DNA of 52,224 nucleotides from assembly GCA_964457475.1 (NCBI GenBank), contig CAYWEK010000001.1, positions 1-52,224 on the forward strand. The letters run 5' to 3'. Below, piece after piece: positions 4,184 through 48,100 of the stretch. A model generated the notes under the pieces. The model made no database searches. It saw nothing but the letters and a program-made list of their open reading frames with translations, and was not told the DNA's origin. The stretch is from Candidatus Woesearchaeota archaeon (GTDB lineage: Archaea; Nanobdellota; Nanobdellia; Pacearchaeales; GW2011-AR1). Made by a program: the position numbers and the translations under genes. The stretch's first letter is position 1. Every line of letters begins with the position of its first letter.

Positions 4184-4265
4184 CGCCCAGACCAGGAGTC
4201 GAACCTGGAGATCCTTGCGGAAATCGCATTTCGAGTGCGACGGAGTACCGTTGTCCCATCTGGGC
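4184..4265 (-). tRNA. tRNA-Ser (anticodon CGA)
   Basis: The reverse complement folds as a cloverleaf: acceptor GCCCAGA/TCTGGGC, anticodon stem TCGCA/TGCGA with loop CTCGAAA, long variable arm TCCGCAAGGA, T arm CCAGG-TTCGACT-CCTGG. No CCA is encoded. Confidence 0.9.
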
Positions 4266-27118: not shown

Positions 27119-27295
27119 ATGAAAAAGGGGCAGAAGGATAAGCTGACAGTCCTGATTGATAGAAATATAAAGGAAAAATACCGCGTATTTTGTGACTTGC
27201 GCGGGCTAATTCTCGGCAAGCAAATAGAATTGTTTATGGAAAGAGAGCTGGAAAAGATAGAAAAAGGAGATAGAAGTGGTGAACGGAAAAAATAA
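27119..27295 (+). CDS. Small ribbon-helix-helix (CopG/ParG-like) DNA-binding protein, 58 aa (below the ORF-track cutoff)
   Basis: My own translation is MKKGQKDKLTVLIDRNIKEKYRVFCDLRGLILGKQIELFMERELEKIEKGDRSGERKK. It has a beta-strand followed by two helices in the RHH pattern. Its 3' end overlaps the next gene by 20 nt. Confidence 0.5.
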   Translation: MKKGQKDKLTVLIDRNIKEKYRVFCDLRGLILGKQIELFMERELEKIEKGDRSGERKK

Positions 27296-28040
27296 AAGAG
27301 GGCAGATAGCGATATGGATAATAATCGCGATTGTGATCGTAGCAGTAATTTTTATGCTTTTCCTACTAAACAAAAGCCCGACAACGATTACACAAGGTCA
27401 ATATGACTTCCAAAGCTCAATAGAAAAATGTGTCAGAGATGCAACAAGCAATGCCATCGATGTAATGATTCCTCAGGGGGGTTTTCTGCAGCCAGAGAAT
27501 TACAAGCTATACAATAATATCAATGTTACATTTTTGTGTCAAAATACTGGATATTTCAAACCATGTATCAATCAACATCCTTTGTTAATTAATGAGGAAA
27601 TCAATGAAATTGAGAATTATACGACACCAATAATAAATAATTGCTTTTCAAGCGCTCAAAGTGAACTTGAAAGTAGAAATTATGGCGTTTCCATAAGCCC
27701 GATTTCACTAAATGTTTCTTTCGGTTCTGGTAGAGTCTACACCCTTATCGTCACAAATGTAACGATAAGTAAAAATGGGCAAACGCAAACATATGATAAC
27801 TTCAATGTAGAATTGAATAGCCCGATATATGATTTAAGTAAGGTTGCGATGGATATAACTAATAACGAGGCCAAGTACTGCTATTTTGAATATGTAGGAT
27901 ATATGCTTCTTTATCCAAGGTGGCAGATATCTAAATTTACTTTCTCAGATTCGACAAAAATATATACTATAGAAGATCTACAATCAAAGAAGGAGATGAA
28001 TATAGCCGTAAGAGGATGCGCTATACCTCCAGGAATTTAA
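27276..28040 (+). CDS. Pilin-like secreted protein A1 (class III signal peptide)
   Basis: GTG start preceded by AAGGAGA. The N-terminus is MVNGKNKRGQIAIWIIIAIVIVAVIFMLFLL (basic residues, then G, Q, then a hydrophobic helix). It is a paralog of 31943-32710. Confidence 0.6.
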   Translation: MVNGKNKRGQIAIWIIIAIVIVAVIFMLFLLNKSPTTITQGQYDFQSSIEKCVRDATSNAIDVMIPQGGFLQPENYKLYNNINVTFLCQNTGYFKPCINQHPLLINEEINEIENYTTPIINNCFSSAQSELESRNYGVSISPISLNVSFGSGRVYTLIVTNVTISKNGQTQTYDNFNVELNSPIYDLSKVAMDITNNEAKYCYFEYVGYMLLYPRWQISKFTFSDSTKIYTIEDLQSKKEMNIAVRGCAIPPGI

Positions 28041-28041
28041 A

Positions 28042-31000
28042 ATGAGGGAAGAAAAAACCGAAAAAAATATTTATTTTTCAGTAATTCTAGAGATGTCTCT
28101 GATGATAGGGATGATTTTTGCAATTTCTTATATGATGGGGCAATATTCTCCTAACGGAACTATGATTATCCAATATAATTCATATGCTATTAATCCTGAT
28201 GCTATATTTTTGAAAGCTCTTGGAATATTTGACAAAATTGTGTTTGGCAACACTGGTTTTGCTTCCGCATTATCACAAAGTGACTTGACGAGTGGGGCAT
28301 ATACTTGCCCTATCGATAAGAATGGTTCAATCTGCCAGCAATATACTGCAAGTGACTGCGCAGCGAACTGCGCTGTTGACTGTCTTCCTACAACAGCAGA
28401 CCAAACTTCTCAATGTAAAATAGGAACATGTTATGATCCTGTGCAGGGAACGTGCCAAATAGGGGCGCCTCAAGTTGCGTGCCAACAGGACGGTGGGCAA
28501 TGGTTCAATGATCCTAATGGAAATGTGGCGCAATGTAAACCTGGATGTTGTCTCCTTGGTAGTAATGCATATTTTGAGACTTCACAACAATGTTCGCATG
28601 ATTCTAATGTAACTGGTCTAACGGAGGATTTTAGACCCGAAGTCAGCACTGAACTCGCATGCCTTGCATTATCACAAACACAAGTACAAGGAGCTTGCGT
28701 AATTGCATCTAATACGCAAAATTCTTGTAAGTTCACAACACAGGTTAATTGCGAACAAGATTTAGGTGGAAAATTTTATCCTAACTTATTATGCTCCAAT
28801 AACGCGTTAAACACAGGTTGTAAATCACAGGCAACAATTGGATGTGTACAGGGTAAAGACGAAGTTTATTGGTTTGATTCATGTGGAAATCAGGAGAATA
28901 TTTATGATGCAAATAAAGTCAAAAGTTATAACAATGGAATGATTCTTTCAAAAAATTCCGCCTGTTCGCTTGCCAGCGGAAATAATTTGCTTGCTAATCA
29001 AGCCACGTGTGGAAATTGCAATTTTGTTCTTGGAAGCATATGTGGAGCCAGTACAAATACACAAAAACTTTCTGAGCCGAATGCAAATGTAGTCTGCAAA
29101 GACTTATCATGTGTTGATGCAGATGGACAAAAAAGAGTAAATGGAGAGTCCTGGTGTGCATATCAAGGTTCAACAGGAACTGCCGCAGGAGCAGGAGGAT
29201 TTTTGAGATCTACAGACACTGTTGGAAGTAGAGATTTCAGGGAAACGTGCATAAACGGACAAATAGAAACAGACCAGTGTGCTGATTATAGAAATGAAAT
29301 CTGTGTTGAGTCGCAAACAAGCACTCCCAATACTCCCACTGGTAAAATATCTTCTGCCGCATGTAGAATAAATCTGGGTTATGAATGTTATGATTACAAT
29401 AAAAATAATGACATGAACAGTTGTAAGCAAAACCCTGATTGTTTCGTGAAAAGTGTTCAAGTATCAGGAAGTTTTAATTTTAATATTTGCGCTCCCAAAT
29501 ATGTTCCTGGTTTTGACTTAACTCAAAGAGGTACTGGAGCGGCTGCAATCTGTTCAATAGCTAATCAACAATGCCAAGTCGTTTATGTCAAAGAACTTTT
29601 TGGAGGATGGCAATGCAAAGCAAATTGTGAATGCCAAACTTCATCATTTGCGGAACAAATGAATGATTTATGTATCTCATTAGGAGATTGCGGAACAAAA
29701 GTAAATTATATTGGAGATTTAACGAAAAATGAACATGTTTTCAAGAGCACTAGTAAGGATAGTCTTGGAAATGAAGTTGGAGCAAGCAGTGGAGATTTAA
29801 GCAATAATTATGTTAATGGGTTGGTGAAATATGCTGATGAGAATTTGTTCAAGAATCAGTATATACAAGCATCAGATATATCTTCGCTGTATGGAAATAT
29901 CGGAATTCCTGGATGGCTTGGACAGGCTCAGTCTCCTACAGATCCAACCGCCGGCGTTACCGGAGAACTTTCCATGATATCTGGGATGGTTGGAATTTTA
30001 GTTCTTGCAGCGGCGCATACGAGTATAGGATTAGCATCACTTGGAGCTCTTAGTAGCGCTGTGGCCCAACCAACTGAAATAGGTCAGGTAACTGGCACCG
30101 GAGCTTATGGGCTAACTCCCGCGGCATCTGCAGCGTTCGGCGCAATAGGCGGCGCCACTTTAGGATTAGCTTTAGTTTCTTTCTTGATTGACTTCACAGG
30201 AATAGGAAAGGGCTTACCTCCAGCTGTGACTTATTCTTTAATGGCGGTGGGAGCGACTGCTGGAGGAATAATAGGGGCAAATATAGCTGCTGGCGGAGGA
30301 TTAGGAAGCTTTAGCGCTGCCTGGACAAGCTTGGCATTCTTATCTGCCCTTTCTGTTGTACTGATTGCTATTGTGATTATAGCAATAATAGTCTTATCAT
30401 TACTTGGAATTGGTGATACAAAAACAGTCTATTACTCTTTTGAATGTGATCCATGGCAAGCTCCTAATGGTGGAGCAAAATGCGATCAGTGTGGAAAAGA
30501 TGGATTCCCATGCTCGCAATATTCCTGCCAAAGTCTTGGCCAAAACTGCCAACTAATCAATGAAGGTAGCGCAAATCCTGCATGTGTTAATATTAATCCA
30601 AATGATACTAGCTCACCAGTAATAACTCCTGCAACAAATCTCTTGCCTGATGGATATACTGCACAGCAAACACAGAATGGAGTAAAAATCACAACTTCCA
30701 ATGGTGGATGTCTGACTGAAAATTACCAACAAATACCTTTTGGAATCAATCTTAATAAATATGGACAGTGCAAAATAGACACGGAGCATACTGCATCATT
30801 TGATGATATGCAACAACCACTTGATTCAGGACTTTATCTCGAAAACCATAGTCTTCCATTAGTTATACCTAGTCTTGAAAGCCTTGGAGTTCAAAGCTTT
30901 AATCCAAATGCGACTGCTGATTATAATATTTATTTGAGATGCCAGGACAAATCAGGAAATACGAATACAAATGAGTATGATATAAACTTCTGCATAGCTC

Positions 31001-31920
31001 CTGGTAATGATACAACTCCTGCAGCAATAACATATTCTGATCCTTCAACAAAAACTCTTGCTTTTAATACAACAAGTATTAACGCATCTGTTTACACAAG
31101 CGAACCGGCAAATTGCAACTGGGACACTAAAGATACAGACTATAATTTGATGGCAAATAACTTTAGTTGCGCAACTGATTTTGCACAGAGAACATTATAT
31201 GGATGGAAATGTAATGCTCTTCTTCCTTTCTCTGGAAATTCAACTACGTATTATGTTAGATGTCTTGACCAACCTTGGTTGACTGGGGATAATGCGACAA
31301 AGAGAAATGCAAACACCCAGAGTTATCCTCTAACTTTCACACGTAGTTCAAAAGCATTAAACATAGACTCTATAAATGTTGATGGCAAAAATTTAAGTTT
31401 TGGAGTTGCCCCAGCAAGTGTTGAAGTTGATGTCAAAACATCTGGTGGATTAGATGGCACTGCTGAATGTGCCTATGTTTGGGGAAATTCAACCATTGAC
31501 TTTTTCAGCACATTGAGCACAAGTCACAGCCAAGTATTTCAGACTTTATATCCTGGGGAAATAACTCTTCCAATAATATGCACCGATTCTGTGGGCAACG
31601 TTGCGCAGAAAACAGCACATTTCAATATCCTTCTAGATACAACTCCGCCGATAATAACAAGAATCTATTCTCAATCTGGACAACTCAATATAATAACCGA
31701 TGAACAATCAACATGCTATTATAGTAATGATGATAGTCAAAAATGTCTTTTCGATATAAGCAATGCGAGCATCTTTAACGGGATTTATACAAATGATCAT
31801 AGTATAAACTTTGACACAAGTCAAGTGTATTATGTAAAATGTAAAGATAAAATTGGAAATTATCCTGGAACATGCAGCACAATAGTAAGAGAGGGGAATT
31901 ATGATTCGCAACAATTATAA
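28042..31920 (+). CDS. Giant cysteine-rich surface/membrane protein B1C1 (1292 aa), no family recognised
   Basis: N-terminal signal anchor, a Cys-dense ectodomain (nt ~28290-29725), a Gly/Ala-rich hydrophobic block (~29960-30420), a Cys knot (CDPWQAPNGGAKCDQCGKDGFPCSQYSCQSLGQNCQ) and four repeats delimited by TTPP-like linkers. The N-terminal half is paralogous to 32712-34256 and the C-terminal half to 35025-37217. Confidence 0.7.
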   Translation: MREEKTEKNIYFSVILEMSLMIGMIFAISYMMGQYSPNGTMIIQYNSYAINPDAIFLKALGIFDKIVFGNTGFASALSQSDLTSGAYTCPIDKNGSICQQYTASDCAANCAVDCLPTTADQTSQCKIGTCYDPVQGTCQIGAPQVACQQDGGQWFNDPNGNVAQCKPGCCLLGSNAYFETSQQCSHDSNVTGLTEDFRPEVSTELACLALSQTQVQGACVIASNTQNSCKFTTQVNCEQDLGGKFYPNLLCSNNALNTGCKSQATIGCVQGKDEVYWFDSCGNQENIYDANKVKSYNNGMILSKNSACSLASGNNLLANQATCGNCNFVLGSICGASTNTQKLSEPNANVVCKDLSCVDADGQKRVNGESWCAYQGSTGTAAGAGGFLRSTDTVGSRDFRETCINGQIETDQCADYRNEICVESQTSTPNTPTGKISSAACRINLGYECYDYNKNNDMNSCKQNPDCFVKSVQVSGSFNFNICAPKYVPGFDLTQRGTGAAAICSIANQQCQVVYVKELFGGWQCKANCECQTSSFAEQMNDLCISLGDCGTKVNYIGDLTKNEHVFKSTSKDSLGNEVGASSGDLSNNYVNGLVKYADENLFKNQYIQASDISSLYGNIGIPGWLGQAQSPTDPTAGVTGELSMISGMVGILVLAAAHTSIGLASLGALSSAVAQPTEIGQVTGTGAYGLTPAASAAFGAIGGATLGLALVSFLIDFTGIGKGLPPAVTYSLMAVGATAGGIIGANIAAGGGLGSFSAAWTSLAFLSALSVVLIAIVIIAIIVLSLLGIGDTKTVYYSFECDPWQAPNGGAKCDQCGKDGFPCSQYSCQSLGQNCQLINEGSANPACVNINPNDTSSPVITPATNLLPDGYTAQQTQNGVKITTSNGGCLTENYQQIPFGINLNKYGQCKIDTEHTASFDDMQQPLDSGLYLENHSLPLVIPSLESLGVQSFNPNATADYNIYLRCQDKSGNTNTNEYDINFCIAPGNDTTPAAITYSDPSTKTLAFNTTSINASVYTSEPANCNWDTKDTDYNLMANNFSCATDFAQRTLYGWKCNALLPFSGNSTTYYVRCLDQPWLTGDNATKRNANTQSYPLTFTRSSKALNIDSINVDGKNLSFGVAPASVEVDVKTSGGLDGTAECAYVWGNSTIDFFSTLSTSHSQVFQTLYPGEITLPIICTDSVGNVAQKTAHFNILLDTTPPIITRIYSQSGQLNIITDEQSTCYYSNDDSQKCLFDISNASIFNGIYTNDHSINFDTSQVYYVKCKDKIGNYPGTCSTIVREGNYDSQQL

Positions 31921-31942
31921 ATACGAGTCTTCTCGGATATTC

Positions 31943-32710
31943 ATGCGAGGCAAAAAGGGGCAAATAGCGATATTTGTTATAATAGCAATAGTGATTGTTG
32001 CTATAATCCTGCTCATTGTTTTTTATCCAAGACTTCCTTCTATCACCCAAGGAGCTGAGCTTTCACCTGTTTCTTTTCTTGCAAGTTGCATTCAACCAGA
32101 TCTGAAAACTGATGTTGCTTTGCTTGGTGGCACTGGGGGTTATGCAACACCTGATGCATATCTTGAATATCAAGGAGCTAAAATACAATATTTGTGTTAT
32201 ACTGCTGAAGACTATAAGACCTGTGTTGTGCAACAGCCACTTATAAAAGAAAATTTTGAAAGACAATTAAATACTTTGATAAAAAGTAAAGTTAGCGGAT
32301 GCGTACAAAGTTTGAATCAGGAATATACTAATCAAGGATATCAAGTCACTATAGGAAATGTTGATAGTCAGACAAGCATAAATCCTGGAGACATTCTAAT
32401 ATCAATAACTGCACCTATGACTGCTACAAAGTCTGGAGTGACAAAGAGTTTCACCGGATTCAATGTTGAAGTACCAAGTAAGATGTATGACTTGTTGATG
32501 ATAGCAACAAGCGTAATCGATTATGAATCAACACTTGGAGACTCTGAAACAACACTTTATGTTCAATACTATCCTAATTTGGTGATGCAAAAAATAAGAC
32601 TTGATGATGGCAGTAAAGTTTATAGCCTGACTGATGTTACAACTAATGAAAGTTTTAGATTTGCCTCGAGAAGCCTAGTATGGCCTCCAGGATATGGAAC
32701 AACTACGTAA
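31943..32710 (+). CDS. Pilin-like secreted protein A2 (class III signal peptide)
   Basis: MRGKKGQIAIFVIIAIVIVAIILLIVFY. The shared Cys pattern (C..LC....YK.C..Q.PL) and the C-terminal WPPGY/IPPGI match A1. The tracked start at 31901 would overlap the upstream gene; I prefer Met15. Confidence 0.6.
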   Translation: MRGKKGQIAIFVIIAIVIVAIILLIVFYPRLPSITQGAELSPVSFLASCIQPDLKTDVALLGGTGGYATPDAYLEYQGAKIQYLCYTAEDYKTCVVQQPLIKENFERQLNTLIKSKVSGCVQSLNQEYTNQGYQVTIGNVDSQTSINPGDILISITAPMTATKSGVTKSFTGFNVEVPSKMYDLLMIATSVIDYESTLGDSETTLYVQYYPNLVMQKIRLDDGSKVYSLTDVTTNESFRFASRSLVWPPGYGTTT

Positions 32711-32711
32711 A

Positions 32712-34256
32712 ATGAAAGTAAAAATTAAAAATCTTGGACTAAGAATTACTTTATTAATCAGTTTAGTACTCTTTGTTTCTGTTTTTAGTACTTATTTTAC
32801 TTTGGCAGATAGTCTGAACCAGACAGTTTGTTGTGAAAAAACAACTTCTAATTTATATTGTCAAAATGTTCCAGCAAGTCAGTGCGCTTCTGGATCAAGG
32901 CAAGTGCCAACTTCATGTTCATCAACTTCATTCTGCAATCCTGGAACATGTTACAATTCTGTGCAAGGAACATGTCTTCAAAATACACCACAAATAACCT
33001 GCAATGCAAATGGTGGAATATGGTCTGCACAAAGTCCACCTCAGTGTAATCTTGGATGTTGCCTTCTTGGAGACCAAGCAGCTTATGTGACATTAACAAG
33101 ATGTAAATATCTTTCATCTTCCCTTGGCTTGCAAACAAATTATGATCCTAGCATAACAAGTGAAACTGCTTGTATACAGCAAGTCCAAGGTCAGGATCAA
33201 GGCGCATGTGTTTATACTTCATCCGACTTGCAAACAACATGCAAGTTTACAACTAGAGCACAGTGTAATCTCGGATTTAATGATACTAACACTGCACAAA
33301 CACCACAATTCTATAAGGATACCTTGTGCACAGCTCCAGTTCTTGGCACTAATTGCGCTCCTACTACAAAGACTACTTGCGTTCCAGGTAAAGATGGAGT
33401 TTATTTCGTTGATACATGCGGTAACCCTGCAAATATTTATGATGCATCAAAAATAAATGACCAAGAGTATTGGACTAATGTTAAAACTATCACACAATCA
33501 TGCAGCCCTAACTCAGGAAATTCGAACTCTCAGACATGTGGAAACTGTAATTATCTTCAGGGAAGTATCTGTAGACAATCATCATCAAGTACTGCTAAGC
33601 CAAGCTATGGAAATTATATTTGTCAGGACTTAAATTGTCAACAAACTTCTGATGGTAAGTCTTACAAACAGGGAGAATCATGGTGCGTTTATACTGATTC
33701 GGGATCTCAAAACACTGGCAATAATGCTGTGGGAAGTGAGTTCTACAAACATATATGTGAAAATGGACAAGAAATTCTTGAGCAATGTTCTGGATTTAGG
33801 CAAGAGGTTTGTCTTCAGGGAAGTATACAAACATCTTCAGGATTGTTTTCGCAGGCAGCATGTAGAGTAAATAGATGGCAAGATTGCACTGCACAAACAA
33901 ATCAACAGGATTGCCAGAATACTGATAAAAGAGATTGTCTTTGGGAAAATGGAGTAGGACTTAATGGTTCAACTGGGGGAGCATGTATCCCACAATACAC
34001 TCCAGGTTTGCAATTCTGGAGCGGTAGTGATGCTCAAAATATATGTGCGCAAGGAAACGCGCAATGTATAGTTACATTTGAAAAAGGTTTGTTTGGTGGA
34101 GAGACATGTAAGTCAAATTGTGACTGTTTAACATCTGACTGGCAGAAACAGAGAATACAAGTGTGCGAGGCACTTGGTGATTGTGGACCAAAGGTAAACT
34201 GGATAGGCCAGCAAGGATATGGTTCTGGTTATAATATAACAACAAGTAGCGCCTAA
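32712..34256 (+). CDS. Cysteine-rich secreted protein B2 (paralog of the N-terminal half of the 1292-aa protein)
   Basis: Signal peptide MKVKIKNLGLRITLLISLVLFVSVFSTYFTLA. About 43 Cys by hand count. Collinear anchors with B1 include GTCYNSVQGTC, GCCLLGDQAAYVT, CGNCNYLQGSIC, GESWCVY and LGDCGPKVNWIG. The tracked start is 32694. Confidence 0.7.
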   Translation: MKVKIKNLGLRITLLISLVLFVSVFSTYFTLADSLNQTVCCEKTTSNLYCQNVPASQCASGSRQVPTSCSSTSFCNPGTCYNSVQGTCLQNTPQITCNANGGIWSAQSPPQCNLGCCLLGDQAAYVTLTRCKYLSSSLGLQTNYDPSITSETACIQQVQGQDQGACVYTSSDLQTTCKFTTRAQCNLGFNDTNTAQTPQFYKDTLCTAPVLGTNCAPTTKTTCVPGKDGVYFVDTCGNPANIYDASKINDQEYWTNVKTITQSCSPNSGNSNSQTCGNCNYLQGSICRQSSSSTAKPSYGNYICQDLNCQQTSDGKSYKQGESWCVYTDSGSQNTGNNAVGSEFYKHICENGQEILEQCSGFRQEVCLQGSIQTSSGLFSQAACRVNRWQDCTAQTNQQDCQNTDKRDCLWENGVGLNGSTGGACIPQYTPGLQFWSGSDAQNICAQGNAQCIVTFEKGLFGGETCKSNCDCLTSDWQKQRIQVCEALGDCGPKVNWIGQQGYGSGYNITTSSA

Positions 34257-34317: not shown

Positions 34318-34971
34318 ATGAAAATAGGTAAACATTTAGGAATTGCAGGTTTAGTTACTGCCGGAACTATTTTGAGTGGGTGCGATGCTACTATGCGAGA
34401 AGATGGTGCAAATGTCTTAGACAATCTAGCAAACAGAGTAGTTACTGGAGGAGCAGTATATGATGCTAATTCACAAATTCAGGCAAACCAAGGCAATTAC
34501 AGAGCCGCTGCAGCGTGGGGCGCACTTGCAGAAACTGCACAAAATGACTACAATAGGCAAACAGCTATAGATGCTGCTGAGGCTGGAAGAAGCGATATAA
34601 CTATCAATAATTATCCTTCCCAGAAGAATAGGCAGATAGATTTAATTCTTTGTTATTGGAAAGACATGAACAATAATGGTAAAATTGATTTAAATGAAAT
34701 TTCTATAAGAAAAACTTTTTATGCTCCTGCAAATGTAACTATATTGGATACAAGTACGGTTACTATTCCATACAACGTTGATATTAAATTATTCAAAGAT
34801 GCAGACGTATTAAGTATAAAAGAAATGCGTTTGAATGGACTTACTCATGACGGTTTCTCGGAAATCTCTGCGCTGACATTTTATGGTCTGACAGATGGTT
34901 ATTACTCTGCTGAGTGCTCTGTTAATGGCGAAATAATCAAAGAATTGACATTTAATGTTGTAAATGAATGA
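34318..34971 (+). CDS. Putative lipoprotein (217 aa)
   Basis: Lipobox-like N-terminus MKIGKHLGIAGLVTAGTILSGC. It has its own TATA (gtttaaatat) centred 26 nt upstream of the ATG. Confidence 0.6.
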   Translation: MKIGKHLGIAGLVTAGTILSGCDATMREDGANVLDNLANRVVTGGAVYDANSQIQANQGNYRAAAAWGALAETAQNDYNRQTAIDAAEAGRSDITINNYPSQKNRQIDLILCYWKDMNNNGKIDLNEISIRKTFYAPANVTILDTSTVTIPYNVDIKLFKDADVLSIKEMRLNGLTHDGFSEISALTFYGLTDGYYSAECSVNGEIIKELTFNVVNE

Positions 34972-35024: not shown

Positions 35025-37217
35025 ATGAGGAAAGGGCTGAAAAAGAGGTTCGTTTATTTTGGAGTTATTGCGCAAATCTTTCTTATGATTTCATTCAGTT
35101 TTACTCTTTCTTTTATCATAAATAATAATTTTGTTAATGCTGCAATTGATAATACTAATTTGGCTCTTGATAATCCTAGTGGAACAGGCATATCTACTAC
35201 GGCTGGGCTTGGTGGCGTTTCCGACTTCAACGGTTTTAACGGTCCGTATAATGGACTAGCTAATCAAATATTGCCTCCTCCAGCAGCTATAAATCCAGTC
35301 TCTGGATCCGCACCTATAATAGTATCACATGCAAATGGATATACTCCTTATCAATTACCTGGAGGTTTAGGCACTATTAGTAATCCTCTTCTTGGGCATC
35401 TTGCTCAAGGACTTGTTTGGGCCGGACTTGTTGCCGGAGCTATTCAATTATTAGGTGCTTTTGGTCTAGGAAAAGGAACAACTAATGCATTGACTATTTC
35501 TGCAGTTGGAGGCATTCTTGCTGGACAAGCCGTAACTGGAGCCTTTCAAAGCGGCTATCTAAACTCATTAGTGGCAGGTAATGGAAAATTTTTTGGATTG
35601 TTTAAGACTGCTGGACAGGCAGGCTTTGCAGTAGGAGCAGTAGTCGCAATAGCACTTTTCATCGCAACTTATTCATCCCAAACTAAAAAAATGGTGAACT
35701 TTCAATGCCTTCCTTTCCAACCAGCTCTTGGCGGCTCGCAATGCCAGAAGTGCAATAATAATCCTTTCGAGCCATGTACTGAATATAGATGCAGAGCACT
35801 AGGACAGGCATGTCAGCTACTAAATGCTGGAAGCAATGATCAACAGTGTGCGTGGGTAAGTCCAAATGATGTAGCTGCACCAACTATAACTCCATGGAAT
35901 GACGCGCTTTCCCCTACTGGATTAAAGTATACTCCTGATACTGCTGTAAATCCTCCGGCAATTGGAACGAAAATAGTTACATCTGGTGGAGGATGTCTTC
36001 CTGCTTTCACACCATTACAATTCGGTATTACTACGAATGAACCTGCACAGTGCAAAATAGATTATAATCATACTGCAAACTATAGTGATATGCAATATTA
36101 TTTTGGAGGAAGCAATTATTTTGATTACAATCATACTGAAATATTATCATTGCCCGGTCCAAATACTGGAAATAATTCTATTGCTCCAGCATTACAAAAT
36201 AATGGTCAATTCTCTCTTTATGTGAGGTGTATGGATGCAAATGGAAATACAAACGTTGCTGAATATGCATTCGCATTCTGTGTTGATCAAGGACCGGACA
36301 CAACTCCTCCAGTAATAGAAGGTTCTTCAATACCATCTGGAAGTTATGTTGGATATGGACAAAGCAATGTGCCTATAGAATTATACACGAATGAGCCGGC
36401 TACTTGTAACTGGGACACTCAAGATAAAGATTATGATTCTATGGCTAATAACATGACTTGTACAACACAAAGTTACCAAGTAAATGCAAATCTACAATAT
36501 ACATGTTTTGGAAATCTTACTGGAATTCAAAATAATAAAGATAATACTTTCTACTTTAGATGCAAGGATCAGCCTGACAAGCCTGATAATCAGAGAAATG
36601 TTGATGTACAAAGTACAACTATTGTATTGAAGGGGAGCCAACCTTTAGTGATTCTTTCTGCTGCACCAAATGGAACTATAACTGGAAGTACGGATACAAT
36701 ACCTGTTAATCTACAGCTTGAAACAAGTGCTGGAGCAACTGGGGATGGTAATTCAACATGTTCATTCTCTTCAACAGGACAAAATGACAGCTATGTCGCG
36801 ATGTTCCAGACAGATAGCTTTACACACAGTCAGACACTTAACCTAGCTACAGGAGATTATACATATTATTTCAGATGCATAGATTCTGGAGGAAACGCTG
36901 CGGAAACCAACACGACTTTCAGTGTGTCTGTTGATACTCAGCCTCCAATAGTAACAAGAGTATACAAGCAGGATGCATTGAAGATAGTCACAAATGAGAA
37001 CGCCCAATGTAGCTATTCTCTTACTTCCTGTAACTTTAATATAGCTGATGGGATAAAGATGATATATTCGAATCCAGACATACAGAATAATCTATTTGCT
37101 GAATGGAAATCAAGCCAGACATATTATATAAGATGCATGGACTTGTATGGAAATGAACCTGCTCCAAATCAATGTAGCATAATTGTAAGTCCTGTTACAA
37201 TAAGCGGAGCTCAATAG
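35025..37217 (+). CDS. Membrane/surface protein C2 (paralog of the C-terminal half of the 1292-aa protein)
   Basis: Signal anchor, a Gly/Ala-rich hydrophobic block (~35390-35680), a Cys knot (CLPFQPALGGSQCQKCNNNPFEPCTEYRCRALGQACQ) and four repeats (NEPATCNWDTQDKDYDSMANN, YYFRCIDSGGN, DTQPPIVTRVY, YYIRCMDLYGN). It has its own TATA 25 nt upstream. Confidence 0.7.
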   Translation: MRKGLKKRFVYFGVIAQIFLMISFSFTLSFIINNNFVNAAIDNTNLALDNPSGTGISTTAGLGGVSDFNGFNGPYNGLANQILPPPAAINPVSGSAPIIVSHANGYTPYQLPGGLGTISNPLLGHLAQGLVWAGLVAGAIQLLGAFGLGKGTTNALTISAVGGILAGQAVTGAFQSGYLNSLVAGNGKFFGLFKTAGQAGFAVGAVVAIALFIATYSSQTKKMVNFQCLPFQPALGGSQCQKCNNNPFEPCTEYRCRALGQACQLLNAGSNDQQCAWVSPNDVAAPTITPWNDALSPTGLKYTPDTAVNPPAIGTKIVTSGGGCLPAFTPLQFGITTNEPAQCKIDYNHTANYSDMQYYFGGSNYFDYNHTEILSLPGPNTGNNSIAPALQNNGQFSLYVRCMDANGNTNVAEYAFAFCVDQGPDTTPPVIEGSSIPSGSYVGYGQSNVPIELYTNEPATCNWDTQDKDYDSMANNMTCTTQSYQVNANLQYTCFGNLTGIQNNKDNTFYFRCKDQPDKPDNQRNVDVQSTTIVLKGSQPLVILSAAPNGTITGSTDTIPVNLQLETSAGATGDGNSTCSFSSTGQNDSYVAMFQTDSFTHSQTLNLATGDYTYYFRCIDSGGNAAETNTTFSVSVDTQPPIVTRVYKQDALKIVTNENAQCSYSLTSCNFNIADGIKMIYSNPDIQNNLFAEWKSSQTYYIRCMDLYGNEPAPNQCSIIVSPVTISGAQ

Positions 37218-37868: not shown

Positions 37869-38684
37869 TTACCTTCCTCTTAATCTGTTAAATAGCGATT
37901 GCCAAAATCCTACCTTCGCTCCGCTTCCATTCAAAGAACCAACTATTCCTCCGCCAGAGATATTTCCTCTATTGTCTGAAGGCATATTCTGAGGATTACC
38001 AACCACTCTAGGTTGGACGATTCCACTTGACTTAGAAGCTATTGAGACGCTATATGTGCCAGCAAAATTTCCAGAGTTCAGATTCAAATTTCCTGTCCAG
38101 ATAGATACTGCTGAATAATCAGTAGAAGAGAGACTTAAAGTCCCCAACGAATTTGAATTACTTTTATCGTTCGTTGCATAAACATTAAAGACTAAACTTG
38201 CGTTTGTTGAAGCACCCATATCTTCAACTATTTTAAACGCACCACGATTGGCTCCGACATCTATATTTATTCTTCCATCAGTTCTTTTTATGAAACTAGT
38301 GTTGACTGCATTCGCCAATGCGCCTCTTATTGCCTGATTCCTGTCCCTTGAGTCATTCTGGTATTGGCTCCTTATACTATTTATATCGCTACTAGATATA
38401 TTTGTTAAAGTTTGTGTTACCCACAATGCGTTGAAAAGATAACCTGTACTATTAGTACTAGAAGTTATCCATCCTTGCCCATATGTGATTACGCTTGAAC
38501 TTACCATTCTATAACCAGATGATTGGTTTAAGTCTGAGAGAGATGAACTAATGTCATCGCTAACACTTGCTGGAGTTATGGTTGAAAAATCTGTGCCATT
38601 ATCATCTGCAACAGCAAATGAAGTGGCAAATACTCCTGCGACTAGCAAAAAGGTCATCGCAAACATAGTTATTTTACTTGTCAT
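37869..38684 (-). CDS. Secreted S/N-rich protein (271 aa), unknown function
   Basis: Signal peptide MTSKITMFAMTFLLVAGVFATSFAVA, with an SD (aaaggaggaaaaa) upstream. Confidence 0.55.
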   Translation of the reverse strand: MTSKITMFAMTFLLVAGVFATSFAVADDNGTDFSTITPASVSDDISSSLSDLNQSSGYRMVSSSVITYGQGWITSSTNSTGYLFNALWVTQTLTNISSSDINSIRSQYQNDSRDRNQAIRGALANAVNTSFIKRTDGRINIDVGANRGAFKIVEDMGASTNASLVFNVYATNDKSNSNSLGTLSLSSTDYSAVSIWTGNLNLNSGNFAGTYSVSIASKSSGIVQPRVVGNPQNMPSDNRGNISGGGIVGSLNGSGAKVGFWQSLFNRLRGR

Positions 38685-39565: not shown

Positions 39566-39733
39566 CTACAAATCTCTTGCCTGCAAAGTGCGGCGGCCAT
39601 TTAGTTTGGTCCTATTTGCCGCTACATCAAGCAATTCTTGAACTTTTTTGTTTAATGCATCTGGAACATCACCTGCAACAGACAAATCAGGAACAGCTGC
39701 TTTTATCTTACTTTTTATTATTAAATCAACCAT
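39566..39733 (-). CDS. DUF1931-like histone-fold small protein, 55 aa (below the ORF-track cutoff)
   Basis: My own translation is MVDLIIKSKIKAAVPDLSVAGDVPDALNKKVQELLDVAANRTKLNGRRTLQARDL. The ...A.NGR[KR]T[LV]..RD[LI] end matches the histone-fold alpha2-L2-alpha3 region. The ATG overlaps the lysS stop (ATGGTTGA). Confidence 0.55.
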   Translation of the reverse strand: MVDLIIKSKIKAAVPDLSVAGDVPDALNKKVQELLDVAANRTKLNGRRTLQARDL

Positions 39734-41237
39734 TATTTTTACCTCCTTTTTTATCTTTTTTATTCAGTATATCAGTTGGCTTCATAAGAGGGAAGATAAC
39801 TGTCTCTCTAATTGGTTTGCCTTCTAAGAATGCAAATAGTCTTTCTGAAACTCCAAAACCACAAGTTGGAGGCATACCATATTTCAAAGCTTCAACAAAG
39901 TCAACATCATGGCTTTGTGCCTCCGAATCCCCAGAATCCTTCATTGACTGTTGTTCCTTGAATCTTTCTTCCTGATCTATCGGATCATTTAATTCAGAAT
40001 ATCCATTTCCCACCTCACTCCCACCTAATATAACTTGAAAACGCTCTGTTTTTCTTGAATCTTTCTCATCTCTTTTTGCAAGAGGGGAGACATCAACTGT
40101 GGTCCCTACCAAAAATGCAGGGCCAGGGATCTTTGCACGACAATATTTCCATAGAGCATCAACAAGAGTTGAGTGACCAGCCTTCTTTTCATATTCAACC
40201 TTCAATTCTGAAAGTTTTTTTTCTATCTCATTATCTTTTGCCTTGAAAATATCTATCTTAGTCATTTTCTTTATCGTGTCTGCATAATCTATTCTTTCCC
40301 ATTTCTTGGACAAATCAAATTCGTGATCTCCAAACTTGAAATTCGTTCGATTATAAACTTCTTTAGCAATTTTTTTATACATTTCTTCAACCAACTTCAT
40401 GCCATCCTCATAATTTGCATATCCCCAATAAAATTCCATTTGTGAGTAATCCTGTAAGTGTTCAGCATCCATTCCTTCATTCCTGAATTGCCGACCTATC
40501 TCGAAAGTTTTTGGATAGCTAGCAACCATTAATCTTTTCTGCCAAAGCTCACCCATCGATATTCTTAAGTAAACATCCAAATCAAGTGAGTTATGATGAG
40601 TCACAAAGGGTTTTGCACTCGCTCCGCCTGCTGAAGTCTCCAAAACAGGAGTTTCAACTTCTAGAAATCCTCTTTCAATAAGAAAATTTCTTATAGTATT
40701 CCAAAATTTTGCCTTTCTTATGAAAATTTCTTTAACTTCCTGATTCATCAATATATCTAAATATCTTTTTCTTAATCTTTCTTCCGAATCCTGAAGTCCC
40801 TGCCATTTATCTGGTAATGGAAAAATTGATTTTGTAAGCAATATAATCTTACTCACTAAAATTGACAGCTCTCCTCTTTTAGTTCTTATTATATTACCTT
40901 CTGCAGCCACAAAATCTCCGGCATCAATATACTTTTTGAAAAAGTCAATTATCTTAGCAGGCGTCTCTTCTTCCTGAAGAATTATCTGGATTTTTCCATA
41001 ACCATCATTAACTGTCCCAAAAATTATCTTACCCATATCTCTTACAATCATCAATCTGCCTGAAACACTTACTGATTCCTTTGTCTTGCCTTCTTCTTTG
41101 AGTCCAGAATATTTTTCATGTAACTCAGATGATATATTGTCCGTCTTGTATTTAGAAAGATATGGATTTATCCCTAGTTTTTTCAATTCTGATAATTTCC
41201 TCAGTCTTTCTTTTACAATCTCATCTTGCCTTCCCAT
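39726..41237 (-). CDS. lysS: Lysyl-tRNA synthetase, class II
   Basis: An OB-fold N-domain is followed by a class II core (FLEVETPVL, FEIGRQFRNEG, GGSEVGNGYSELNDP, YGMPPTCGFGVSERL). A TATA is centred 26 nt upstream of the ATG. Confidence 0.9.
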   Translation of the reverse strand: MGRQDEIVKERLRKLSELKKLGINPYLSKYKTDNISSELHEKYSGLKEEGKTKESVSVSGRLMIVRDMGKIIFGTVNDGYGKIQIILQEEETPAKIIDFFKKYIDAGDFVAAEGNIIRTKRGELSILVSKIILLTKSIFPLPDKWQGLQDSEERLRKRYLDILMNQEVKEIFIRKAKFWNTIRNFLIERGFLEVETPVLETSAGGASAKPFVTHHNSLDLDVYLRISMGELWQKRLMVASYPKTFEIGRQFRNEGMDAEHLQDYSQMEFYWGYANYEDGMKLVEEMYKKIAKEVYNRTNFKFGDHEFDLSKKWERIDYADTIKKMTKIDIFKAKDNEIEKKLSELKVEYEKKAGHSTLVDALWKYCRAKIPGPAFLVGTTVDVSPLAKRDEKDSRKTERFQVILGGSEVGNGYSELNDPIDQEERFKEQQSMKDSGDSEAQSHDVDFVEALKYGMPPTCGFGVSERLFAFLEGKPIRETVIFPLMKPTDILNKKDKKGGKNNG

Positions 41238-47530: not shown

Positions 47531-48100
47531 TCAACAGATTGCACCCTGCACTGTTCCTACTCTACTTATTGTAAAATCAAGGTCTTGCGTTGATAATAAT
47601 GTCCCATCCTTAGTTACTTGGACTTGTATTGTTATTGCTCCTTCAGGAGCATTTGAAGGAATATCTATCCTAACAACTTTCTTTGGAATAGAATCTCCAG
47701 GTGCAACTGTTCCAGAATATTGAGATTGCACTATCCATTTTTGAAGTTGATCATTGGTAAGTGAAGATATCCCTGAACGAACACTCGTCACGCTGACCTG
47801 ATAATCTGCTTGGGCTGGGGCTCTTATTCCGCAATAAACTATATTTTCCTGACCTGTAGCCATCTTTATGGGATCGCCCGAAGCACCAATGCATGCGACT
47901 TCACCTCCTGAATCTCCAAAATATTTGTTGATTTCAGAATTCACAGCACCATTTATGTTGCCCGTTAATCCTATTGCACTGCACAATATGCTCCTAATCA
48001 GAACCATTCCGAGTATCAACATGGAAACACCTAAAACGATAATTATAATCGTACTTACCGATAATTCAATTGCCGCTTTTTTATTTTTCATCATTTTCAT
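47531..48100 (-). CDS. Pilin-like secreted protein (class III signal-peptide-like N-terminus)
   Basis: MKMMKNKKAAIELSVSTIIIIVLGVSMLILGMVLI: a basic stretch, small residues, then a long hydrophobic helix with an early Glu. Confidence 0.55.
   Translation of the reverse strand: MKMMKNKKAAIELSVSTIIIIVLGVSMLILGMVLIRSILCSAIGLTGNINGAVNSEINKYFGDSGGEVACIGASGDPIKMATGQENIVYCGIRAPAQADYQVSVTSVRSGISSLTNDQLQKWIVQSQYSGTVAPGDSIPKKVVRIDIPSNAPEGAITIQVQVTKDGTLLSTQDLDFTISRVGTVQGAIC

Follow-up and report, generated by a model that had tools for sequence, protein, structure and literature searches.

The stretch of DNA analysed here, referred to as the window, comprises 52,224 nucleotides (positions 1 to 52,224 of the forward strand of contig CAYWEK010000001.1, GenBank assembly GCA_964457475.1) and originates from a Candidatus Woesearchaeota archaeon. 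Its guanine plus cytosine content is around 34%. The archaeal origin assumed in an earlier note on this DNA agrees with the end of an archaeal large subunit rRNA and an archaeal RNase P RNA found in the window, and with homologs from metagenome-assembled genomes (MAGs) of DPANN archaea. Between positions 27276 and 37217, the window contains six co-directional genes, which are designated A1, B1, A2, B2, L and C2 (Table 1). The operon is flanked by housekeeping genes, upstream by those encoding CobA, an AI-2E transporter and PheRS, and downstream by genes encoding Hjc, AspRS, a DUF362 protein and an RNA methyltransferase. The subject of this analysis is B2, which encodes an exceptionally cysteine (Cys)-rich protein.

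Table 1. Coordinates of the operon genes and their parts; a slash within a motif marks the predicted cleavage or processing position (aa, amino acids; Ig, immunoglobulin).
Feature	Position in the window	Strand	Length or residues	Description
A1	27276..28040	+	254 aa	Pilin-like; class III-type signal KRG/QIAIW, then hydrophobic helix; alpha/beta ectodomain with 6 Cys; first operon gene
B1	28042..31920	+	1292 aa	Fused paralog; N-terminal anchor at aa 9-33
B1, B-type Cys-rich ectodomain	28279-29721	+	aa ~80-560	43 Cys
B1, membrane region	29950-30432	+	aa 637-797	Gly/Ala-rich, multi-helix, Cys-free; three to four predicted helices
B1, C-type ectodomain	30439-31917	+	aa 800-1292	21 Cys
A2	31901..32710	+	255 aa from Met15	Pilin-like; likely true start Met15 at 31943 (MRGKKG/QIAIFVII...); 4 invariant Cys
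B2	32694-34256	+	520 aa	43 Cys (8.27%)
B2, signal peptide	32694..32807	+	aa 1-38	Lys-rich n-region, hydrophobic core, predicted cleavage TLA/D (hydropathy)
B2, mature ectodomain	32808..34256	+	aa 39-520	43 Cys, beta-rich, no membrane anchor of its own
L	34318..34971	+	217 aa	Lipobox LSG/C, DxNxNG-type loop; between B2 and C2
C2	35025..37217	+	730 aa	Membrane partner; 21 Cys, 10 N-glycosylation sequons
C2, N-terminal anchor			aa 8-33	Followed by a ~95-residue Gly/Pro/Asn-rich outside loop (hydropathy)
C2, Gly/Ala-rich helices			aa 129-219	Hydropathy
C2, 7-Cys knot	35706-35849	+	aa 228-275	Directly past the last helix, just outside the membrane

An exact count confirmed the earlier hand count of about 43 Cys (~8 percent) in B2, and all CC, CxxC and CxC motifs quoted with it (CGNCN, CKSNCDC) were found in the protein, namely CC at residues 46-47 and 122-123, CGNC at 282-285 and CKSNCDC at 472-478. 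The open reading frame (ORF) of B2 can be read from the ATG at position 32694 or from the in-frame Met7 at position 32712, which yields a protein of 514 aa and is in closer agreement with the signal peptides of orthologous proteins. The choice of the start codon does not affect the Cys count, because every Cys follows residue 45. Across the remaining 47 ORFs, the mean Cys content is 0.74%, and the binomial probability of finding at least 43 Cys in 520 residues at this rate is approximately 1e-30. The density is thus extreme within the window; however, related genomes encode further proteins that contain 9% Cys and a predicted signal peptide but are unrelated to B2, for which reason the high Cys density appears to be a lineage trait rather than an isolated case. 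Three such predicted secreted non-B proteins with ~9% Cys are encoded at L023:2762-5848 (+), L031:12973-14838 (-) and L048:2720-3598 (+); in two of the three, a CARDB domain is located at the C-terminal end.

The Cys pattern of B2 is also found in its paralog B1, which possesses 43 Cys in its N-terminal 560 aa. At an overall identity of 36%, 40 of the 43 Cys columns of B2 are Cys in B1 as well, which bears out the near-complete conservation described earlier, and the remaining three are offset by a few residues; C407 of B2 seems to be shifted by three residues in B1-type proteins. A comparison of 48 B2 orthologs revealed that 34 Cys are invariant and that the other nine are at least 90% conserved.

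As judged by hydropathy and ortholog comparison, B2 starts with a Sec signal, in which a basic n-region is followed by a hydrophobic h-region and by small residues at positions -3 and -1. The sequence of this region varies freely among the 48 orthologs, but the layout of n-, h- and c-region is kept in nearly all of them, and an (A/S)xA site precedes the invariant TVCCEKT motif by 3-8 residues in nearly all cases. The conserved signal peptide agrees with the description of B2 as a secreted protein in the earlier note. No hydrophobic segment could be detected in the mature protein by hydropathy analysis, and a partner would therefore be needed for B2 to stay on the cell. Taken together, B2 shows the features of a Sec-exported protein with a cleavable signal peptide and without a membrane anchor of its own.

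A candidate for such a partner is C2, a putative polytopic protein whose four Ig-like repeats each end with the motif Y(Y/F)(V/I)RCxDxxGN (Pfam Big_13, E = 1.2e-6). Among the operon proteins, only C matches generic bacterial Ig-like domains, and the 302 homologs of C2 all belong to the same clade and are all unnamed. The Gly/Ala-rich membrane region of these proteins is rich in small-xxx-small motifs (counts of 11 and 17 for [GAS]xxx[GAS]xxx[GAS]) and contains 17-18% Gly. The relationship between B2 and C2 becomes apparent from the composition of B1. In BLASTP comparisons, its N-terminal half is similar to B2 (36% identity, E = 7e-85), whereas the last 490 aa are similar to C2 (37% identity, E = 4e-80). 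The N-terminal anchor of B1 matches the anchor of C2 with an hhalign probability of 96.8% (E = 2.8e-10), whereas the comparison with the B2 signal peptide yielded a probability of only 8.9%, i.e., both are not homologous. B1 can therefore be described as a C-type protein whose first outside loop harbours a B domain, and B2 and C2 appear to be the split form of the arrangement that is fused in B1.

The pilin-like proteins A1 and A2 are paralogs (28% identity, E = 2e-28) and carry prepilin-type motifs, KRG/QIAIW in A1 and KKG/QIAIF in A2, whose processing is predicted from the motif only. The G and the Q of the KRGQ motif are invariant among 50 A homologs. No gene for a PibD/EppA-type peptidase was found within the 52-kb window. 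A2 corresponds to the database protein P0271 of 255 aa, which has 320 homologs, each named hypothetical. The mechanically called A2 ORF, which starts at position 31901, begins 14 codons early, as Met15 (MRGKKGQIAI...) is the first residue of both the database protein and the orthologs; with this start, a spacer of 22 nucleotides follows B1 and the two genes do not overlap. The lipoprotein L has no Pfam family match. The gap between B2 and C2 contains a same-strand lipobox ORF in 29 of 44 related loci, and these ORFs are fast-evolving and encode in many cases DxDxDG-like loops. In many of the proteins in this slot, the calcium-loop-like DxDxDG motif precedes a beta-rich domain. A wide distribution of lipobox proteins among DPANN archaea has been reported (10.1101/2024.08.27.609747).

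The gene order was compared in 80 related loci, 61 of which extend far enough upstream and 52 far enough downstream of the B2-type gene. In all 80 loci, the family members are encoded on a single strand. The order A, fused B+C, A is found directly upstream of the B2-type gene in 53 of the 61 loci, and this number increases to 59 when loci with wider spacing or with an interrupted fusion gene are included. A C-type gene is located downstream of the B2-type gene in 41 of the 52 loci with a median gap of 1.5 kb, and a family-4 glycosyltransferase (AglH-type GT4) occupies this gap in six loci. One of these enzymes, which is encoded between the B2-type and the C2-type gene at L051:2075-3091 (+), matches Pfam Glycos_transf_4 with an E-value of 5.6e-32. 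The Glycos_transf_4 family includes enzymes that start N-glycan assembly, and the position of the gene hints at a glycosylated complex. The neighbourhood with CobA, Hjc, AspRS and DUF362 is common to the related loci, which argues for vertical inheritance. One locus (L071:153-11297) contains three modules in series, with the order A, B+C, A, B+C, A, B, C, and the module must therefore have been duplicated more than once.

Relatives of B2 are numerous, but restricted in their origin. A protein collection clustered at 90% contains 1,636 relatives and at 50% identity, 1,650 cluster representatives were retrieved, 934 of which have an E-value of at most 1e-30. All of them are named hypothetical protein, none has a precomputed Pfam domain and their stated source organisms are MAGs of Pacearchaeota, Woesearchaeota or Nanoarchaeota. 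A scan with one genome per GTDB species revealed that at least 469 genomes encode a B2 relative. Likewise, 79 of the 80 best loci stem from MAGs of DPANN or unclassified archaea named Pace-, Woese- or Nanoarchaeota, and the remaining one (L017) is labelled Candidatus Parvarchaeum sp. Two architectures recur in the family, the B2 type with ~500-600 aa and the B1 type with ~1,200-1,350 aa. The degree of conservation was assessed by the median identity between each window protein and its orthologs in the same related loci. B2 has a median identity of 56.6%, which is close to the values of DUF362 (58.9%) and TruB (59.4%) and is followed by AspRS (50%), the AI-2E transporter (46.5%), A2 (46.1%), C2 (45.7%), A1 (42.0%) and B1 (39.9%). 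B2 thus seems to be under a constraint comparable to that of nearby housekeeping enzymes (DUF362, TruB) and above that of A1, B1, A2 and C2. This conservation is high for an exposed protein of fast-evolving symbionts and suggests strong purifying selection, which argues against the recognition of variable partners and favours a core function that is structurally or mechanistically constrained. No account of the B family was found in the literature searched. The genes constitute an undescribed surface operon, strongly conserved and duplicated, in a major clade of uncultured archaea.

Evidence for structural disulfides, which had been proposed in the earlier note, comes from the way in which Cys residues are lost. 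For this purpose, 347 distinct B domains were aligned to the family profile and joint losses of Cys columns were counted. Cys46 and Cys75 were lost together in 79 cases (80 losses in each column), and all losses at 94 and 118 (10 each), 221 and 242 (8 each) and 365 and 390 (2 each) were joint losses. The same behaviour was observed for 229 and 293 (9 joint losses, 10 in each column), 472 and 476 (56 joint losses, 56 and 61 in the columns) and 458 and 478 (6 joint losses, 6 and 9 in the columns). A separate run on 222 sequences yielded identical co-lost pairs. In agreement with this, Cys counts change only in steps of two: B2-type ectodomains contain 41, 43 or 45 Cys and the B parts of fused proteins 39 to 47. 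The incorporation of Cys in pairs is an accepted genomic indicator of disulfide formation in exported proteins (PMC2823432). Seven specific disulfides of B2 can be inferred from the paired losses, and around 21 internal disulfides are predicted in total.

The parity of these counts points to one further bond. The Cys number is odd in the B2-type ectodomains of 81 of 81 loci, and C2-type ectodomains never deviate from 21 Cys (52 of 52 loci). Where a locus has one protein of each type, which applies to 46 loci, both are odd in all 46. Fused proteins combine an odd with an odd number and are thereby even overall in 46 of 51 cases, as seen for B1 with 43 + 21 Cys. Of 134 A ectodomains, which are encoded next door in the same genomes and serve as internal control, 133 have an even count (4 or 6 Cys). 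These counts were obtained across loci that are not phylogenetically independent. B and C thus each keep one Cys that lacks a partner within the same domain through many independent gains and losses of pairs, and the simplest reading of this is one disulfide between B and C, which would be formed between two chains in B2/C2 and within a single chain in B1. The Ig-like repeats of C contain 14 Cys, which are arranged as seven closely spaced twos. By elimination, the membrane-proximal 7-Cys knot is the likely site of the bridge on C.

Several searches were carried out to find relatives of the B and A proteins. An AlphaFold2 model of B2, which was based on a 49-sequence alignment, has a mean predicted local distance difference test (pLDDT) score of 82.5 and a predicted template modelling (TM) score of 0.63, and the low confidence throughout that had been named as an argument against a disulfide-knotted fold was not seen. 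The model consists of an N-terminal helix followed mainly by beta-hairpins and short helices. Foldseek searches with this model against 350,542 PDB chains (best E = 0.26, TM at most 0.11) and against the viral structures of BFVD (best E = 0.32) yielded no match, and searches of Pfam, NCBIfam and PHROGs with B2 returned no family at E <= 1. PDB sequences searched with profiles of B, A and C2 likewise yielded no significant hit, and a Pfam scan of 49 B family members gave no EGF or TNFR match and no iron-sulfur (Fe-S) or zinc-finger family. The A2 model has a pLDDT of 89.8 and contains two helix-on-sheet units; its Foldseek search against the PDB gave no match either (best E = 0.011, TM 0.12). 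The statement of the earlier note that no known Cys-rich family fits is thus supported by the empty Pfam, NCBIfam, PHROGs and PDB-profile searches for B2, and both B and A are without relatives among the curated families and solved structures of the libraries searched.

In contrast, the likeness to eukaryotic or viral extracellular modules that had been suggested for B2 was not substantiated: the Foldseek searches of PDB and BFVD were empty, repeats of Cys modules are absent and no relatives were found in IMG/VR or PHROGs. An identity as class II fusogen or fusexin is not supported, as there was no PDB match (best E = 0.26), assuming that HAP2/fusexin structures were present in the PDB copy. 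EGF- or TNFR-type tandem repeats were rejected, because hhalign comparisons of nine consecutive B2 segments revealed only the boundary residues shared by neighbours. A match to Pfam CoV_NSP4_N was observed in 19 of 49 members, but covers 32 residues and remains below the threshold with 14.8 bits compared to a cut-off of 25. It is located at approximately aa 76-108 of B2, has a best E-value of 4e-4 and concerns the luminal part of NSP4_N; it was judged to reflect a chance resemblance of Cys hairpins. A viral or mobile origin was also tested by a scan of IMG/VR, which gave 35 pattern matches, none of which could be confirmed, and PHROGs yielded nothing. The VYFVDxCGN segment of B2 resembled DVYWYDSCGN in the L023 protein by eye; however, a module common to B and the 9%-Cys ORFs was discarded, as both the full B profile and a VYFVDxCGN sub-profile missed those proteins.

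On balance, B2 probably represents the secreted head of a surface complex that is specific to DPANN archaea of the Pacearchaeota/Woesearchaeota type. After export, B2 would fold with around 21 internal disulfides, and its remaining Cys would pair with the remaining Cys of the C2 ectodomain, likely in the 7-Cys knot by the membrane. This bridge would tether B2 covalently to the polytopic C2 protein with its Ig-like stalk. The paralog B1 would unite both parts in a single chain, in which the first outside loop of a C-type protein holds the B domain. Additional components would be the pilin-like A proteins and the lipoprotein L, and all parts encoded by the operon would assemble as one surface complex. 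An association of B and C is also indicated by the gene fusion in B1, whose N-terminal anchor is of the C type. As to the role of the complex, our guess is that it serves structure or contact in the cell envelope; it does not resemble a fast-evolving adhesin.

A number of observations weigh against this interpretation. The disulfides follow from evolutionary inference rather than from structure or chemistry, and the parity leaves unspecified which Cys are unpaired; the odd Cys of B and C could be free thiols, metal ligands or modification sites instead, and the CxxC motifs (B2 282-285, C2 240-243) could be redox-active or zinc-binding. Moreover, the Cys count of the B part is even in 5 of 51 fused proteins. 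No thioredoxin-, DsbA- or VKOR-like ORF was found among those scanned in the 52-kb window, and a check for a thiol oxidase detected no CxxC motif in the unannotated ORFs examined. These archaea often inhabit anoxic water and are not known to have quinone-based respiration. Cys biosynthesis has been reported to be absent in these minimal-genome archaea (PMC11606122).

Two alternative interpretations overlap with the head-subunit model and differ from it mainly in function. The A, B, L and C proteins could form an attachment or feeding structure of an episymbiont, in which the Gly/Ala-rich helices of C and B1 form a membrane pore by oligomerisation, the Ig-like stalks extend outwards and the B heads bind to or insert into the host envelope. 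The clade is metabolically reduced and thought to be episymbiotic, and a relation to symbiosis was proposed for lineage-specific modules of membrane or extracellular proteins (PMC8204110). A host-contact machine would also be in line with the small-xxx-small motifs and the Gly content of the membrane regions, with the pilin-like, lipoprotein and Ig-like parts being encoded together and with the operon occurring in almost all related genomes that were sampled. However, B2 is conserved like a housekeeping enzyme, whereas proteins recognising varied hosts usually diversify, and no fusogen, toxin or pore protein of the PDB is structurally similar to it. In addition, genes for a secretion ATPase or pilus assembly were not found adjoining the operon, and the pore is suggested by composition alone. 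This function appears unlikely. Slightly less probable again is a surface layer (S-layer)-type lattice, in which C and B1 act as membrane-anchored stalks and B as the lattice-forming or capping domain. S-layer proteins are typically Cys-poor, and a polytopic Gly-rich membrane domain is not a feature of S-layers; both points argue against this hypothesis, which would otherwise account for the universal presence and strong conservation in the clade, the membrane anchor, the Ig-like repeats and the 10 sequons of C, as well as the AglH-type glycosyltransferase between B2 and C2 in six loci. S-layers made of an anchor and a canopy are known in Sulfolobales; however, the identity of S-layer proteins is usually low above the genus level (10.1101/2023.10.27.564410), whereas B2 reaches ~57% across the clade. 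Furthermore, a structure-based survey assigned the S-layer proteins of Nanoarchaeota to an MSTP-like beta-sandwich type (10.1101/2024.05.28.596244).

Other explanations concern the nature of B2 itself. The CxxC and CxxxCxC motifs of B2, the often anoxic habitat and the lack of a Dsb-like gene in the window would be compatible with metal-binding (Zn or Fe-S) or redox-active Cys in a cytoplasmic or membrane-associated protein instead of structural disulfides. This is highly improbable in view of the conserved cleavable signal peptide and of the losses, which affect specific twos that are up to 64 residues apart and not sets of three or four ligands; B2 also contains no CxxCH haem motif and no Fe-S or zinc-finger Pfam match. 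The earlier note had named Cys that coordinate metal clusters in a cytoplasmic context as a finding that would speak against a disulfide fold, and the signal peptide and the pairwise losses point in the other direction. We consider it least probable of all that B2 is a domesticated envelope glycoprotein of a virus or mobile element. A Cys-rich secreted ectodomain with a membrane-anchored partner bears a general likeness to viral spikes, and the CoV_NSP4_N match described above is of viral nature, but is short and far below its cut-off. Relatives are missing from IMG/VR, PHROGs and BFVD, and the operon is embedded in a conserved chromosomal neighbourhood in many genomes (CobA upstream; Hjc, AspRS, DUF362 and the RNA methyltransferase downstream).

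Some further features of the window are worth mentioning. An ORF of 189 aa at 47531-48100 (-) begins with MKMMKNKKAAIELSVSTIIIIVLGV, a pilin-like class III-type N-terminus, and contains 4 Cys; its match to Pfam Alph_Pro_TM is just under the cut-off (23.4 bits compared to 24.5). The gene at 37869-38684 (-) encodes a signal-peptide protein of 271 aa, which contains many Ser, Asn and Thr residues and is without a Pfam match; it is devoid of Cys and thereby contrasts with the adjoining Cys-dense operon. A class II tRNA synthetase of the Asp/Asn type is encoded at 39726-41237 (-). Compared with related loci, it falls into two identity classes of 43-50% and 62-73%, whereas the identity of the neighbouring genes varies smoothly, which suggests the presence of two paralog types or a replacement. 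At 4184-4265 (-), a tRNA-Ser(CGA) was identified by ARAGORN, which is missing from the Rfam scan at the gathering threshold; overall, Rfam detected three and ARAGORN four tRNAs.

In groundwater and lakes, Pacearchaeota and Woesearchaeota rank among the uncultured archaea of highest abundance. A four-part surface operon, which is present in at least 469 species-level genomes, provides a concrete target for questions regarding the cell envelope and the attachment to partners of these organisms. The bookkeeping of Cys residues (an odd number in B, 21 in C, an even number in A and a fused B+C paralog) predicts a covalent link between B and C and an architecture with two subunits. A single operon encoding 128 Cys is also puzzling for minimal-genome archaea with respect to its cost and to the extracellular oxidation. 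It is conceivable, if doubtful, that the operon encodes an unrecognised surface machine for host contact or exchange, composed of a membrane ring held together by glycine zippers, Ig-like stalks and a covalently bridged, disulfide-knotted cap. If true, this machine would define the Pacearchaeota-Woesearchaeota lineage and would imply a pathway that introduces dozens of extracytoplasmic disulfides without respiratory quinones or Cys synthesis.

Disulfide-stabilised, membrane-tethered surface complexes are a kind of system that is already known in general; the folds of B and A, however, match nothing in the libraries searched. In a study by Castelle et al. (2021), modules 98 and 222 were found in the same clade, are unannotated and were predicted to be membrane-bound or extracellular (PMC8204110). 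The operon probably belongs to these lineage-specific modules, which were defined there as families by presence and absence; the B family, its Cys content, the operon and the fused and split paralogs are not described there, and its main text contains no mention of cysteine (PMC8204110). With EGF, TNFR and viral spike ectodomains, B has in common that it is secreted, beta-rich and equipped with dense, conserved and probably paired Cys, and that it would be tethered to a membrane-anchored partner. It differs from them in lacking repeated Cys modules of ~40 residues and in the empty Pfam and Foldseek (PDB, BFVD) searches. Similarly, B resembles the fusexins/HAP2 as an archaeal, exported, beta-rich and presumably disulfide-stabilised protein, which is followed by transmembrane helices in B1. 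It can be distinguished from them by the N-terminal signal, the location of the B domain in a loop of a polytopic protein, the Ig-like repeats and the missing PDB match. The pilin-like proteins A1 and A2 share with archaeal type IV pilins a short basic N-terminus, the invariant G/Q and a hydrophobic helix of ~20 residues, and the A2 model shows a helix packed on an antiparallel sheet, which is a pilin-like trait. Unlike pilins and archaellins, they gave no significant match (the best being an archaeal flagellin N-terminus with E = 2) and no pilus assembly genes are located nearby. The Cys-rich CARDB exoproteins at L031 and L048 stem from the same lineage as B, are also predicted to be secreted and contain ~9% Cys. 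They are not homologous to B, as the B profile did not match them with all filters off, and B has no CARDB domain; nevertheless, they indicate that many proteins of this lineage look disulfide-rich. In its overall organisation, the operon is reminiscent of the two-component S-layer of the Sulfolobales with its SlaA canopy and SlaB membrane stalk, in which adjacent genes encode an outer part and a membrane-anchored, Ig-like, glycosylated stalk, an arrangement that is predicted for the operon as well. In contrast to SlaA/SlaB, with which it has no sequence similarity, the system described here is Cys-dense and conserved, and it combines a polytopic Gly/Ala-rich membrane region with pilin-like and lipoprotein partners.

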